Source: Thermoflexia bacterium (lineage in GTDB: Bacteria; Chloroflexota; Anaerolineae; B4-G1; DUEL01). Taken from it: 64,000 nt of DNA. Position 1 is the first letter of the stretch. Every line of letters begins with the position of its first letter. Made by a program: the position numbers and the translations under genes. The notes beneath the pieces were generated by a model, which was not told where the DNA came from, did not search any database, and saw only the letters and a list, made by a program, of their open reading frames with translations. This document shows, piece after piece, positions 9,014 to 49,393 of this stretch. Where the stretch lies: the NCBI GenBank assembly GCA_011192125.1, contig DUEL01000002.1, positions 52,161 to 116,160 on the forward strand. The letters are read 5' to 3'.

Positions 9014-9021
9014 TCCAATCT

Positions 9022-9094
9022 CACCACAGAGGCACAGAGAGCACAGAGTCTCTCCCTCACCTCAACCCTCTGTATCCTCTGTGCCTCTGTAGTG
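9022..9094. repeat. CACAGAGG-palindrome element copy A
   Basis: caccacagaggcacagagagcacagag ... ctctgtatcctctgtgcctctgtagtg; inverted arms each of three CACAGAGG/CCTCTGTG units. Confidence 0.85.
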
Positions 9095-9099
9095 AGACA

Positions 9100-19013: not shown

Positions 19014-19064
19014 GGGCACGGCCTCGCTGGGGAGGCTGTGCCCCTACGAGGGTACCGCCTAGAA

Positions 19065-19136
19065 CACCACAGAGACACAGAGGGCACAGGGTTCTCTCTG
19101 TATTAGAGATTCCTCTGCGCCTCTGTGGTAAAACCT
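19065..19136. repeat. CACAGAGG-palindrome element copy C
   Basis: caccacagagacacagagggcacagg...cctctgcgcctctgtggtaaaacc between convergent ecfT and rtcA. Confidence 0.8.
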
Positions 19137-21010: not shown

Positions 21011-21027
21011 AATTCTTCCGTCAGTTC

Positions 21028-21104
21028 CCACCACAGAGGCACTGGGGGGCAGAGTTTCTCATTCATCTCTGATCCCTCCGCGCCCTCTGTGTCTCTGTGG
21101 TTTC
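21028..21104. repeat. CACAGAGG-palindrome element copy D (overlaps 3' end of rarD)
   Basis: cccaccacagaggcactggggggcagag...ccctctgtgtctctgtggtttcac; last 15 codons and stop of rarD lie inside it. Confidence 0.8.
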
Positions 21105-27317: not shown

Positions 27318-28919
27318 TTGGGGGAGATGGAGGGATTCTTACACGCGCAGGGGTTGATCATCCTGTTGGTGCTGGTGGCGACGTTGGTCGCCATCGTCGT
27401 CCGCCGGATCCGTTTTCCCTACACGGTGAGTCTGGTGCTGGTCGGGCTGTTCCTCTCCGTCCAGCGGCCGTTGGACGTGGAGGTGACGCCGGAACTCATC
27501 CTGGCGATCTTCGTCCCGCCCCTGATCTTCGAGGCCGCATTCCACCTGGACTTCAGCCTGTTGCGGGAGAACCTGACGCCGATCCTGGTGCTGGCCGTGC
27601 CGGGCGTCGCGCTGACCACGCTGATCGTCGGGGGGATCGTGGCGGCGGGGACGGGGATGGACCTGGGCGCAGCGTCGGTCTTCGGCGCGCTGATCGCCGC
27701 GACGGACCCGGTGGCGGTGATCGCCCTCTTCCGCGCGCTGGGGGTCTCCCGTCGGCTGGCGGTGGCGCTGGAGGGGGAGAGCCTCTTCAACGACGGCACG
27801 GCCATCGTCCTCTTCCGCATCGCGCTGGCGGCCGCCCTCTCCGGCTATTTCAGCCCGGTGGAAGGCCTCTTCGACTTCACGGAGGTGGCGCTGGGCGGGA
27901 TCGCCATCGGCACGGCCCTGGGGTGGCTGACGGCGCAACTGATCGCCCGCCTGGAGGACCGGCTGGTGGTGACCACGCTGACCACCCTCCTGGCCTACGG
28001 GGCCTACCTGTCCGCCGAACAGCTCCACGTCAGCGGGGTGCTGGCGGTGGTGATGGCGGGGCTGGTCTGCGGGAACGTCGGTCTGGCCGGAGCCTCCCCC
28101 ACGACCAAGATCATGCTCTTCAACCTGTGGGAGTATCTGGCCTTCCTGGCCAACTCCCTGGTCTTCCTTCTCATTGGGCTGACGGTGGACCTGGCTCAAC
28201 TGGCGACCAACCTGGGTCCCATCGGTGTGGCCGTAGCGGCGGTGCTGATCAGCCGGGTGGTGGTGGTGTACGGCCTCTCCTGGCTGGCCCACGCCGGTCG
28301 GAGCCGGCCCCACATCCCGCTCCGTTGGCGGCACGTCCTCTTCTGGGGCGGGCTGCGGGGAGCGATCAGCCTGGCGCTGGCGCTGAGCCTCCCCGCGGTC
28401 CTGCCGGAGCGGGAGACGCTGCAGGCGATGGCCTTTGGGGTGATGCTGTTCACCCTCCTGGGTCAGGGCACCACCATCCACTTCCTGCTGCGGAAGTTGG
28501 GACTGATCTCCCTGCCCCAGCACCGATTGGCGCGGGAGAAGCGGCTGGGGCGGCTGTTCGCCGCCCAGGCGGGCCTCCGGCGGCTGGAGCGGCTCCATCG
28601 GGAGGGGCTACTGACCGACGAGATGTGGGCCGGGCTGCGGGACGACTACCACCAAGCACGGCAGAGGTTGATCGAGGAGATGAACCGGCTGTTCCGTGAG
28701 CACGCCGAACTGGAGCGGGAGATGCTGATCCAGGCCCGACGGGAGGCGCTGCAGGCGGAGCGGGGAGCGCTGGGCGACGCCCTGCGGCGAGGGTTGATCT
28801 CAACGGTGGTGTACGAGGAGTTGACGGAAGAGGTAGACCGCCGCCTGGAAGCGCTGGAGATGATCCAGGCGGCCCTGCACGGGGAGAGGGCCGGGGAGTT
28901 GGAGAGGGATGGAGCGTAG
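27318..28919 (+). CDS. Na+/H+ antiporter, CPA1 (NhaP-type) with cytoplasmic C-terminal domain
   Basis: GALIAATDPVAVIALFRALGV, LEGESLFNDGTAIVLF motifs; start TTG 27318 or ATG 27327. Confidence 0.85.
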   Translation: MGEMEGFLHAQGLIILLVLVATLVAIVVRRIRFPYTVSLVLVGLFLSVQRPLDVEVTPELILAIFVPPLIFEAAFHLDFSLLRENLTPILVLAVPGVALTTLIVGGIVAAGTGMDLGAASVFGALIAATDPVAVIALFRALGVSRRLAVALEGESLFNDGTAIVLFRIALAAALSGYFSPVEGLFDFTEVALGGIAIGTALGWLTAQLIARLEDRLVVTTLTTLLAYGAYLSAEQLHVSGVLAVVMAGLVCGNVGLAGASPTTKIMLFNLWEYLAFLANSLVFLLIGLTVDLAQLATNLGPIGVAVAAVLISRVVVVYGLSWLAHAGRSRPHIPLRWRHVLFWGGLRGAISLALALSLPAVLPERETLQAMAFGVMLFTLLGQGTTIHFLLRKLGLISLPQHRLAREKRLGRLFAAQAGLRRLERLHREGLLTDEMWAGLRDDYHQARQRLIEEMNRLFREHAELEREMLIQARREALQAERGALGDALRRGLISTVVYEELTEEVDRRLEALEMIQAALHGERAGELERDGA

Positions 28920-29340
28920 ACCGATCGTGTGTGCCACGCGCGGCGGGGAGGCCAGCCGACGCACCCAGGAGCGGGCGATCGCGCTGGCGAAGGAGCGGGG
29001 CGCCGACCTGATCTTCCTGTACGTCGTGGACCCCACGTTCGCCGGTCCGGTCAGCGACACGCTGGCGGCGGCGATGGAGGACGAGTTGAAGCGGCTGGGG
29101 AGGTCGCTCCTCTCCATCGCCCAGGCGCGCGCCCAGGAGCGGGGGGTCCGGGCCCGGACGGTCGTCCGCGCCGGGCCGGTGTGGGAGACCATCAAGGCCT
29201 ACCTGAACGAGGCGGGGGCCGAGACGCTGGTCCTCGGCGCGCCGGGGGACAAGGTGGACGAGGCCGCCGACGTCGGGGACGTGGGCCGGCTCGCCGAGGA
29301 GGTACGGCGAGATACCGGCGTGGAGGTCGTGGTGGTTTGA
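28909..29340 (+). CDS. universal stress protein (UspA family)
   Basis: 143 aa; RPIVCATRGGEASRRTQERAIALAKERGADLIFLYVVD...; 11-nt overlap with antiporter. Confidence 0.8.
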   Translation: MERRPIVCATRGGEASRRTQERAIALAKERGADLIFLYVVDPTFAGPVSDTLAAAMEDELKRLGRSLLSIAQARAQERGVRARTVVRAGPVWETIKAYLNEAGAETLVLGAPGDKVDEAADVGDVGRLAEEVRRDTGVEVVVV

Positions 29341-29344
29341 GGTT

Positions 29345-29574
29345 CCCACCACAGAGGCACAGACGATACGGAGAAGAAGATATCTGGAGAAACTGGCTAC
29401 CTGACAGTTTGCCAGCCTCCCGCAGGTTTATGCACGGCTTAACAGCGCAAGCGACCAGCCAGGGCACCCTTTACGGCGCGTTCGGGTGCGTCGTAGGGAA
29501 CCTGCGGGAGGCTCCCTTCAAAAGTGTCAGGGGACTGATTGGAGAAACTCTGTGCTCTCTGTGCCTCTGTGGTT

Positions 29575-29576
<2 letters not shown>
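29345..29576. repeat. CACAGAGG-palindrome element copy E, split by a nested insertion
   Basis: left arm cccaccacagaggcacagacg 29345-29365; right arm ctctgtgctctctgtgcctctgtggtttc 29548-29576. Confidence 0.8.
29395..29540. mobile_element. 146-bp hairpin element (MITE-like) inserted in loop of copy E, flanked by 9-10 bp direct repeat (T)GGAGAAACT
   Basis: Direct repeats at 29386-29394 and 29541-29549; element has stem gcctcccgcaggtt/aacctgcgggaggc and outer stem cctgacag/ctgtcagg; homologous 80-bp copy at 48550-48632. Confidence 0.6.
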
Positions 29577-31608
<2,032 letters not shown>

Positions 31609-34794: not shown

Positions 34795-34879
34795 GATGGA
34801 TGCATCCCTAGAGGGACGCGCGTTGGACCTCCCGCAGGGCCCTCTCCCCTGCGGGAGGTTTTTTCTACAGGGAGATAGG

Positions 34880-37144: not shown

Positions 37145-37217
37145 TTTCACCACAGAGTCACAGAGGGCACAGAGGGAAAATCTAAATCTCTGTGTTCTCT
37201 GTGTCTCGGTGGTGAAA
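37145..37217. repeat. CACAGAGG-palindrome element copy F
   Basis: tttcaccacagagtcacagagggcacagaggg...ctctgtgttctctgtgtctcggtggtgaaa. Confidence 0.85.
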
Positions 37218-37243
37218 TACTTCAGGACCGAGGAGACGCATCG

Positions 37244-37444: not shown

Positions 37445-37450
37445 ATTTTT

Positions 37451-37530
37451 ACCACAGAGGCACAGAGGACACAGAGTTTTCTCTCTCTTTTTTCAGAGAT
37501 TCCTCTGTGTCCTCTGCGTCTCTGGGGTTT
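37451..37530. repeat. CACAGAGG-palindrome element copy G
   Basis: accacagaggcacagaggacacagagttttctctctcttttttcagagattcctctgtgtcctctgcgtctctggggttt. Confidence 0.85.
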
Positions 37531-39041: not shown

Positions 39042-39046
39042 TCTCT

Positions 39047-39126
39047 ACCACAGAGGCACGGAGGGCACAGAGTTTTCTCCCATTTTTCAGAGATTCCTCT
39101 GTGTCCTCCGTGTCTTTGTGGTTTTA
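39047..39126. repeat. CACAGAGG-palindrome element copy H
   Basis: accacagaggcacggagggcacagagttttctcccatttttcagagattcctctgtgtcctccgtgtctttgtggtttt. Confidence 0.85.
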
Positions 39127-39135
39127 CCGCTTCCA

Positions 39136-40167: not shown

Positions 40168-40190
40168 GATCCACCTCGCAAGATGTGCTA

Positions 40191-40266
40191 ACCACAGAGG
40201 CGCAGAGGACTCAGGGTTTTCTCCAAATTATGGAGTTTCCTCTGTGCCCTCCGCGTCTCCACGGTT
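40191..40266. repeat. CACAGAGG-palindrome element copy I (overlaps 3' end of tilS)
   Basis: accacagaggcgcagaggactcagggttttctccaaattatggagtttcctctgtgccctccgcgtctccacggttttt; tilS last 13 codons + stop inside. Confidence 0.8.
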
Positions 40267-41742: not shown

Positions 41743-41748
41743 AGGTCT

Positions 41749-41807
41749 TCACCACAGAGACACAGAGGGCACAGAGTTTCCTCTGTGTCCTCTGTGCCTC
41801 TGTGGTT
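41749..41807. repeat. CACAGAGG-palindrome element copy J (compact, 3-nt loop)
   Basis: accacagagacacagagggcacagagtttcctctgtgtcctctgtgcctctgtggtttt. Confidence 0.9.
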
Positions 41808-41815
41808 TTCCCCCC

Positions 41816-48532: not shown

Positions 48533-48549
48533 AGCACCTCTCCACTGCA

Positions 48550-48632
48550 CTGGCTACCCGACAGTCAGCCAGCCTCCCGCAGGTTAGGGAACCTGCGGGA
48601 GGCCCCTTTCAACAGCGTCAAGTAGCTGATCC
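48550..48632. repeat. second copy of hairpin element (minimal loop form)
   Basis: ctggctacccgacagtcagccagcctcccgcaggttagggaacctgcgggaggcccctttcaacagcgtcaagtagctgat; 14-bp perfect GC-rich stem with 4-nt loop; between convergent genes. Confidence 0.6.
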
Positions 48633-48679
48633 ATCGCAGAAGAGAAGCACAGAGTCTTGCAACAGTGCTCTCAGTGTTC

Positions 48680-49393
48680 TCAGTGATCCCCCCCTCTTCG
48701 TGGTGAGACACGGTCGATCAACCGCAAGACCCCCCGCTCCAGCCGGGCCTGGTAGCGGGCGAACAGGACGGCGAGGGCCGCACCACCGATCCCCAGCCCA
48801 ACCCATCCCCACCACGGCAAGGTGGTGGCGTTCGCGCCCACCCAACTGGCGATCCACAGGCCGGGCAGCCGCCCGACCGCCGCCAGGATCAGCATATAGG
48901 GAATCGGCAAAGGACTCAGGCCGATGAGGAAACAGAGCAAATCGTCGGGGAGGAAGGGGAGCAGAAAGGCGAGGAAAAAGAACACCGGACCCCGCCGCCG
49001 GGCGACCCGGTCCCACTTCGACAACCGTTCCGCCCCGACCAGGCGGGCCACCAATGGCCGACCAAACCACCGGGCCAGCCCCATCGCCAGCGCGGAGCCG
49101 AGCATCACCCCGATCAGACTGTAGAGGGTCCCCAGGCCAACGCCATAGAGATACCCGGCGACCAAGCCGACCGTCTGGCCGGGGATAGGGGCCAGGAGGA
49201 CCTGGAGGGTGTGGAGGAGGATCGCGACCACCGGCCCCCAGGGTCCGAACCCCGCCACCCAGGCTTGCACCGCCTCCTGATCCGCCAGGAGCCGGTACAG
49301 GTCGTCCCCCCACAGCAGGCCGACTGCCAGGAGGGAGAGGACCACGACCGCCAACCCGACCACCCGGCCGGTGGTCCAATCCTTTCGCTCCAC
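48680..49393 (-). CDS. TVP38/TMEM64 (DedA/SNARE-associated) family membrane protein
   Basis: LLAPIPGQTVGLVAGYLYG and FLPFLPDDLLCFLIGL motifs; start GTG 49393 (AGGGGGG SD) preferred over ATG 49477. Confidence 0.65.
   Translation of the reverse strand: MERKDWTTGRVVGLAVVVLSLLAVGLLWGDDLYRLLADQEAVQAWVAGFGPWGPVVAILLHTLQVLLAPIPGQTVGLVAGYLYGVGLGTLYSLIGVMLGSALAMGLARWFGRPLVARLVGAERLSKWDRVARRRGPVFFFLAFLLPFLPDDLLCFLIGLSPLPIPYMLILAAVGRLPGLWIASWVGANATTLPWWGWVGLGIGGAALAVLFARYQARLERGVLRLIDRVSPRRGGDH

Follow-up and report, generated by a model that had tools for sequence, protein, structure and literature searches.

Probable insertion of a MITE with 9-bp target-site duplications into a palindromic repeat element of a Thermoflexia bacterium

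The repeat complex between the Usp gene and uvrB

The window analysed in this study is a stretch of 64,000 nt from the genome of a hot-spring Thermoflexia bacterium (Chloroflexota). Within it, a universal-stress-protein (Usp) gene and uvrB run towards each other, and the 234 nt between them (29341-29574) are filled entirely by a complex of repeats. The G+C content of the window is 66%. The complex is composed of an outer palindromic element of the CACAGAGG type and an inner element of 146 bp, which is most likely a MITE (copy A). A second and shorter copy (copy B) is located elsewhere in the window (Table 1). The composite spacer is carried by two independent JGI assemblies and is therefore no assembly artefact. 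One of them (L001; loci fetched from related genomes and metagenomes carry the prefix L) is 99.9% identical with the window over 10.2 kb, the other (L002) shows 100% identity and its contig begins within copy A.

Table 1. Features of the repeat complex around copy A, of the site of copy B and of the other palindromic elements in the window (window coordinates).
Feature	Position	Strand	Remark
Universal-stress-protein (Usp) gene	28909-29340	+	convergent with uvrB
Left arm of the host CACAGAGG-type palindromic element, ACCACAGAGGCACAGA	29348-29363		perfect inverted repeat with 29558-29573; aligns with the left arms of the eight other window elements
Host loop remnant	29364-29383		directly after the left host arm
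Left 9-bp target-site duplication of copy A, CTGGAGAAA	29384-29392		8/9 against 29539-29547 in the family register
MITE copy A, full-length 146-bp form	29393-29538	+	boundaries from the duplication register of the family; aligns with 19 other copies
Left TIR of copy A	29393-29428	+	
70-nt core of copy A	29429-29498	+	
Right TIR of copy A	29499-29538	+	
Inner 15-bp perfect hairpin of copy A, AGCCTCCCGCAGGTT / AACCTGCGGGAGGCT	29414-29513	+	arms are the inner part of the TIRs, 70-nt core between them
Right 9-bp target-site duplication of copy A, TTGGAGAAA	29539-29547		family register
Right arm of the host CACAGAGG element, CTCTGTGCTCTCTGTGCCTCTGTGGTTTC	29548-29576		reverse complement is a full canonical arm
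uvrB	29575-31608	-	convergent with the Usp gene
Left target-site duplication of copy B, TCCACTGCA	48541-48549		7/9 against 48630-48638
MITE copy B, 80-bp internal-deletion derivative	48550-48629	+	both TIRs kept; core cut to the 4-nt loop AGGG
Right target-site duplication of copy B, TCCATCGCA	48630-48638		family register
Degenerate CACAGAG/CTCAGTG-type short-repeat array	48648-48688		directly downstream of copy B; read from the sequence
Eight other CACAGAGG elements	9019-9097, 19062-19135, 21026-21101, 37147-37215, 37447-37528, 39043-39122, 40187-40262, 41750-41812		host element of copy A at 29345-29576

With 25 occurrences in the window, the motif CACAGAGG is more frequent than expected (2.9). 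The elements built from it are palindromes of ~70 nt, with arms of 2-3 tandem units of 8-9 nt (CACAGAGG/C) and an AT-rich loop, and they nearly fill several gene spacers (e.g., 9014-9099, 37145-37221, 39042-39135 and 41743-41815). They were also found at related MAG and metagenome loci (L016, L038, L117, L121, L122 and L132). In the eight other elements of the window, only about 10-30 nt lie between the two arms. In the host of copy A, however, the arms 29348-29363 and 29558-29573, which are perfectly complementary, are separated by 194 nt.

The first-pass annotation of this DNA had taken the wide separation of the arms and a direct repeat around the extra DNA as signs of an insertion, and both are seen in the sequence. 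The direct repeat, TGGAGAAACT, is located at 29385-29394 and 29540-29549 and matches at 10/10 positions. The proposed duplication of 9-10 bp is present as described, but in the register shared by the whole family it amounts to 9 bp, of which 8/9 agree here. The longer match is due to a CT that both opens the element and follows in the right flank. After excision of 29393-29538 together with one duplicate, an 87-nt stretch is restored (the element and a few flanking bases), which aligns end to end with the eight other elements (stretches of 70-89 nt). The target of the insertion, (C/T)TGGAGAAA, is the junction of the host loop with the host right arm, and the insertion increased the distance between the host arms to 194 nt, where 10-30 nt are usual. 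We conclude, with a probability of about 0.9, that 29393-29538 is a MITE which duplicated a 9-bp target and landed in a pre-existing CACAGAGG-type palindromic repeat.

Copies in related genomes and their target-site duplications

In a first scan, the 18-mer GCCAGCCTCCCGCAGGTT was compared with one genome per species. At least 99 matching stretches were obtained, which comprise two repeat families and scattered chance matches in coding DNA. A second scan, with a 34-nt degenerate left-end pattern, was applied to metagenome contigs and added 24 further contigs. Dozens of copies of the window type, named Family 1, were found in MAGs and metagenomes of related Thermoflexia/Anaerolineae, at sites that are unrelated to each other; MAG CAZOLN01, which shares ~89% nucleotide identity with the window where the two overlap, has at least 12 of them. 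Over its full length, copy A is 88-96% identical to copies at unrelated loci. Many matches sit at contig ends, as would be expected of a repeat that breaks assemblies through its many copies.

For the analysis of target-site duplications, each copy was taken to run from CTGGC... to ...GCTGG, the ends common to the family, and its two flanking 9-mers were compared. The flanking 9-mers agree at 7/9 positions or more in 20 of 24 complete Family 1 copies and are identical in 10 of the 24, and the remaining 4 copies have no recognisable duplication. In a shifted control, 7/9 or more was reached in 0.15% of comparisons. The duplicated 9-mer differs from copy to copy (e.g., ATCACAGGT, TATTGGGTA, AACGGTAGA and ATCCCTCAT). 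Copy-specific duplications of this kind are what transposition with target cuts staggered by 9 bp leaves behind. According to the first-pass annotation, the nested-insertion reading would fail if the element were found nowhere else; it is found at many loci of related genomes that are unrelated to each other, each time with a 9-bp duplication of its own. Together, the multi-copy loci and the copy-specific duplications support the proposed nested insertion of a second, distinct non-autonomous family with target-site duplication.

It might be argued that the TGGAGAAACT repeat belongs to the structure of the CACAGAGG element itself, or arose by local slippage, and that the hairpin DNA arrived by recombination. 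The motif GGAG(A/T)(A/T)(A/T)C is indeed a normal part of the inner ends of CACAGAGG arms, and no empty site was recovered (see below). In each of the eight other elements, however, a single copy of the motif sits at the inner end of the right arm and is matched by its complement in the left arm; the two are inverted, and a GGAGAAACT-type direct repeat never occurs. The duplication is thus not an ordinary part of the CACAGAGG loop. Moreover, the repeat abuts the exact ends of an element whose other copies carry unrelated 9-bp duplications in the same register. This explanation is therefore close to refuted, and the insertion of a MITE is retained.

According to a rough GC3-based gene call, all Family 1 sites are intergenic and their orientation is unbiased with respect to the flanking genes. 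The flanks differ from copy to copy. The length of the element is 144-147 bp in 17 of the 24 copies; deletion derivatives measure 80-136 bp. One copy (L128 745-~845 and L131) has lost most of the right TIR and kept a perfect 9-bp duplication, TTTGGAGGT, which shows that the deletion followed the insertion. Another copy (L127 351-495) has no matching duplication. Its right flank, TTGGAACGT, is the left flank of a contig-end copy (L065 1-54), which can be explained either by an assembly collapse across two MITE copies or by recombination of two copies.

Anatomy and predicted fold of Family 1

From 20 aligned copies, the consensus of Family 1 was determined as CTGGCTACCTGACAGTTTGCCAGCCTCCCGCAGGTT, a 70-nt core and AACCTGCGGGAGGCTCCTTTCAAAAGTGTCAGGTGGCTGG. 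The first-pass annotation had seen no obvious terminal inverted repeats, but in the family consensus imperfect TIRs (CTGGCTACCTGACAG.../...GTGTCAGGTGGCTGG) of ~36-40 bp are clear. They are composed of an outer part (CTGGCTACCTGACAGTTT / AAAGTGTCAGGTGGCTGG) and an inner, perfect 15-bp repeat of the GCCTCCCGCAGGTT type. In the consensus of the 20 copies, the pairing joins alignment columns 2-36 to columns 108-148; of the outer 18 nt, 14/18 are complementary, with mismatches of the wobble type, and the inner 15 nt are perfect. The predicted consensus fold is one long hairpin with two small apical hairpins. In copy A itself, the inner arms (29414-29428 and 29499-29513) form 15 perfect base pairs with 70 nt between them. 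The outer stem (29400-29410 and 29521-29531) has 11 nt and is 91% complementary, and its right half reads GTGTCAGG and not CTGTCAGG as given before. The family alignment also replaced the earlier boundaries of both window copies by those in Table 1.

The 70-nt core is non-coding and too small for a transposase gene. In agreement with the earlier statement that the element has no ORF, it is crossed only by long spurious frames, which are typical of high-G+C DNA. The first-pass annotation could not assign the element to a known class. With its small size, TIRs around a core, a duplication of fixed length, no transposase gene and multiple copies, it falls under the definition of a MITE. The right tip of copy A has diverged from the consensus by three substitutions (GGGGACTGA versus GGTGGCTGG). 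Because of these substitutions and the one mismatch in the duplication, copy A is probably an old insertion that is no longer mobile.

We also considered that the copies are kept for an RNA function, as a structured ncRNA gene or a cis-regulatory RNA (terminator or stabiliser), and are not selfish DNA. The predicted fold of the composite spacer is very stable (-114 kcal/mol, z = -7.6), several of the terminal pairs are G.U wobbles on the + strand only, both window copies lie between convergent genes, and the core hairpin is found again in a second family of elements as well as in stand-alone T-tailed hairpins of other Chloroflexota MAGs. Such a function does not account well for the copy-specific 9-bp duplications that flank the copies, and a strand-specific role of the RNA is made less likely by the unbiased orientation of the copies with respect to neighbouring genes. 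A compensatory change was found in only 2 of 46 predicted pairs; covariation is nearly absent because the copies are 88-96% identical. A scan of the Usp-UvrB spacer for promoters and terminators found nothing, and no T-run follows the hairpin. No Rfam family matched the whole window at gathering thresholds, and a permissive scan of 29100-29800 gave two chance-level matches only (E = 0.59 and 6.3), far below threshold. Taken as the primary reason for the copies, an RNA function is therefore very unlikely, but it could be a secondary, exapted effect of the MITE.

Copy B and the short forms of the element

The two window copies share 92% identity between 29392-29428 and 48549-48585 and 93% identity between 29494-29521 and 48585-48612. 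The core is reduced to AGGG in copy B and in the copies of two other loci (L012 at position 1945, and L034). These are the very four bases with which the full core ends, and the short form is therefore an internal-deletion derivative. Copy A had been described as the form with a 78-nt insert in its loop. The loop measures 70 nt, which is 66 nt longer than that of copy B, and the polarity is reversed: the 146-bp form is canonical and the 80-bp copy B is derived from it by deletion.

An ortholog of copy B is present in MAG CAZOLN01 (L009 1600-1683, matching 48550-48638 of the window), and copy B is thus old. The ortholog has the apical loop CTCTAT instead of AGGG and lacks 37 nt, including the right tip and the right duplication. 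These were apparently lost by a deletion between CAACAG/CACAG short repeats. It is followed by a CTCAGTG/TTCAGCG heptamer array that is longer than that in the window.

Insertion sites and recurrent nesting in palindromic repeats

It had been proposed that the inserted family targets the first family or tolerates landing in it. In line with this, CACAGAGG-type elements contain or adjoin at least six further copies. Three of them (L132, L117 and L121) occupy the central loop of a CACAGAGG element, and a partial copy is located centrally in another one (L016). In the remaining cases, the right flank of the copy is a CACAGAGG arm (L038), or the copy sits at the outer end of an arm (L122) or a few nucleotides outside of it (L119). 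Other short repeats are also adjoined: one copy lies within a GCAGGAT heptamer array (L113), and copy B and its ortholog abut the CTCAGTG-type array. Most Family 1 copies are located outside CACAGAGG elements.

The duplicated 9-mers have a mean G+C content of 48%, compared to 66% in the window and 60% in short spacers (Mann-Whitney p = 6e-5). Family 1 thus prefers AT-rich 9-mers. The loops of the CACAGAGG elements have 36% G+C. AT-rich 9-mers are concentrated in spacers and especially in these loops, so that the preference for A+T suffices to explain the nesting and is likely the reason why it recurs. Based on the rough gene call, CACAGAGG elements represent ~7-12% of the non-coding DNA and hold ~23-29% of the insertion sites. 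Compared with intergenic DNA as a whole, the estimated enrichment amounts to no more than ~2-3 fold, which is marginal in statistical terms, and specific targeting of CACAGAGG elements can therefore not be claimed. A less likely alternative is that the MITE recognises the tips of CACAGAGG hairpins or cruciforms by their structure and not by their A+T content.

Orthologous spacers

The spacer between the Usp gene and uvrB was compared in relatives of the window genome. Two loci (L102 3869-4129 and L103 5035-5295) with 98% UvrB identity and ~88-93% nucleotide identity contain an unrelated spacer of 261 nt, which is highly structured (-130 kcal/mol) and has kept only a degenerate left CACAGAGG arm. 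At a third locus (L104 5044-5052), where UvrB is 91% identical, the spacer comprises just 9 nt, which shows that the whole repeat complex is added DNA. More distant UvrB relatives have a different gene order. The repeat complex is thus lineage-specific added DNA in a spacer with fast turnover. The empty site is predicted to read ...GATATCTGGAGAAACTCTGTGC...; a clean empty CACAGAGG site was not present among the orthologous spacers of UvrB relatives, and the predicted empty junction GATATCTGGAGAAACTCTGTGCTCTC is not matched exactly anywhere in the metagenome collection. More generally, the short intergenic spacers of these genomes are layered mosaics of small repeats, which turn over between close relatives.

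Possible mechanism and search for a transposase partner

A DDE transposase supplied in trans would bind both ends of the MITE (the TIRs) and would cut the target with a 9-bp stagger; repair of the gaps would then duplicate the 9-bp target. We searched for an autonomous partner at several levels. Within the window, there is no autonomous element with Family 1 ends and there are no long-range inverted repeats of the IS type. A BLAST search with the TIRs against all fetched loci (~0.9 Mb) returned only MITE copies, and a generic search of the same loci for IS-like inverted repeats with 8-9-bp duplications gave nothing credible. No plasmid record matched the element, no viral contig matched the outer TIR, and no full-length IS was present among the 24 metagenome matches. 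Six left ends of the second family (Family 2, described below) run into non-element DNA, and no right end follows within 3 kb; at two of these (L018 and L056), where the ORFs were read, the left ends adjoin ordinary genes. Family 1 combines a 9-bp duplication with 5'-CT(G) ends, both of which are traits of the IS10 subgroup of the IS4 family. A derivative of that group would also have a cognate DDE (DDE_Tnp_1) transposase with matching TIRs, which the above searches did not reveal. The likeness concerns the two traits named and serves as a lead only.

A hairpin-dependent single-strand system, such as a REP/REPIN moved by RAYT or a palindrome-associated element of the IS200/IS605 type, would fit the dominant, perfectly conserved GC-rich hairpin and the association with REP-like repeats. 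REP/REPIN and IS200/IS605-type elements are not known to have target-site duplications or TIRs, and their short hairpin is recognised by a Y1 transposase. Family 1, in contrast, has both a target-site duplication and TIRs, and no Y1 transposase gene was found among the adjacent ORFs read at the Family 2 loci L018 and L056. We give this possibility almost no credence and keep to a MITE that is probably mobilised through its TIRs. Integron attC sites, group II intron fragments and retrons were set aside on anatomy only, in view of the copy-specific 9-bp duplications and because no integrase or reverse-transcriptase genes are in the neighbourhood.

Comparison with known elements

Bacterial MITEs are generally <200 bp in size (up to ~400 bp), have TIRs around a core and generate target-site duplications; examples are Correia, ERIC and Nezha (Delihas, 2011, PMC3184786). 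Family 1 resembles them in its size of <200 bp, its TIRs with a non-coding core, its duplication, its multiple intergenic copies and the long stable stem-loop at the RNA level. It differs from the known bacterial MITEs in having no sequence similarity to Rfam or plasmid records, in its host lineage, the thermophilic Thermoflexia/Anaerolineae, and in its unusually long TIRs (~36-40 bp) with a perfectly conserved, GC-rich inner repeat of 15 bp. By its behaviour, the closest analogue is MITEAba12 of Acinetobacter, which has 113 bp, 78% A+T, 16-bp TIRs, 9-bp duplications and the parent ISAba12 (PMC6382973). Both are non-autonomous elements of about 100-150 bp with imperfect TIRs and 9-bp duplications, whereas Family 1 has 146 bp, is G+C-rich, carries TIRs of 36-40 bp, has no parent that was found and shares no sequence similarity with MITEAba12.

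For the nesting, the closest analogue are IS elements which use REP elements as targets, several of them with high sequence selectivity (Tobes and Pareja, 2006, PMC1525189). Like these, Family 1 is found repeatedly inside extragenic palindromic repeats, which act as hot spots or safe havens. Unlike these autonomous elements, it is a MITE with a moderate association that is explicable by the preference for AT-rich 9-mers.

No description of MITEs in Thermoflexia or Chloroflexota was found in the searchable literature. Family 1 is new, but the kind of element is well known: MITEs, their duplications and nesting in palindromic repeats are already established, and no concept is changed by our findings. 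They add to an under-studied thermophilic lineage of the Chloroflexota a MITE family for which the consensus, the ends, the length of the duplication and the preferred targets are described. Elements of this kind break MAG assemblies. As strain markers, the element and its host repeat are of practical use; annotators should mask both.

A second MITE family and the shared core hairpin

From the GCCAGCCTCCCGCAGGTT scan, a second MITE family of 154 bp (Family 2) was obtained in the MAGs CAZXVB01 (binchicken_co256_477) and JAOZOT01. Its loci fall within L006-L100, e.g., L017 2344-2497 and L040 3770-3923. The tips (GGGTCAACG...; GGGTCAACGTGGATTCGTGGGG... / ...CCCCTCGAATCCGTGTAGAGCC) are of the GGGTC... 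type, compared to CTGG... in Family 1. Family 2 has an AT-rich duplication of 8 bp, which is perfect in 10 of 21 copies; in the 9-bp register, 0 copies reach 8/9. Many copies are internal-deletion derivatives of 93-126 bp, and many are located at contig ends.

Essentially the sole sequence common to Families 1 and 2 is the core hairpin GCCAGCCTCCCGCAGGTT / CCTGCGGGAGGCT. Its left arm is identical in both by construction of the search, but the match of the right arm is unforced. GCCAGCCTCCCGCAGGTT and its complement also occur as a stand-alone hairpin with a short loop in other Chloroflexota MAGs (L073 at ~124, L074 at ~273, L090 at ~1237 and L101 at ~1176); two of these four (L073 and L090) are T-tailed and terminator-like. 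In the window, an ordinary intrinsic terminator at 34826-34866 (GACCTCCCGCAGGG...CCCTGCGGGAGGTTTTTT) has the same 11-nt stem core, CCTCCCGCAGG. The other CCTCCCGCAGG matches in the window are chance matches in coding DNA or this one terminator, and none of them is a copy of the element. These observations hint that the MITE core may be derived from, or mimic, a host terminator stem.

The hairpin is common to two otherwise different MITE families and to the stand-alone hairpins. It is conceivable, though unlikely, that GCCAGCCTCCCGCAGGTT ... AACCTGCGGGAGGCT is a functional module itself, for example a host-factor or RNA-level signal, beyond its place as the inner TIR. If it were true, different transposition systems would spread one selected hairpin through these genomes.

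One Family 2 left end (L097, position 155) was found on a contig binned as a 'Deltaproteobacteria' MAG from the Guaymas Basin, which represents either a mis-binned Anaerolineae contig or horizontal spread.
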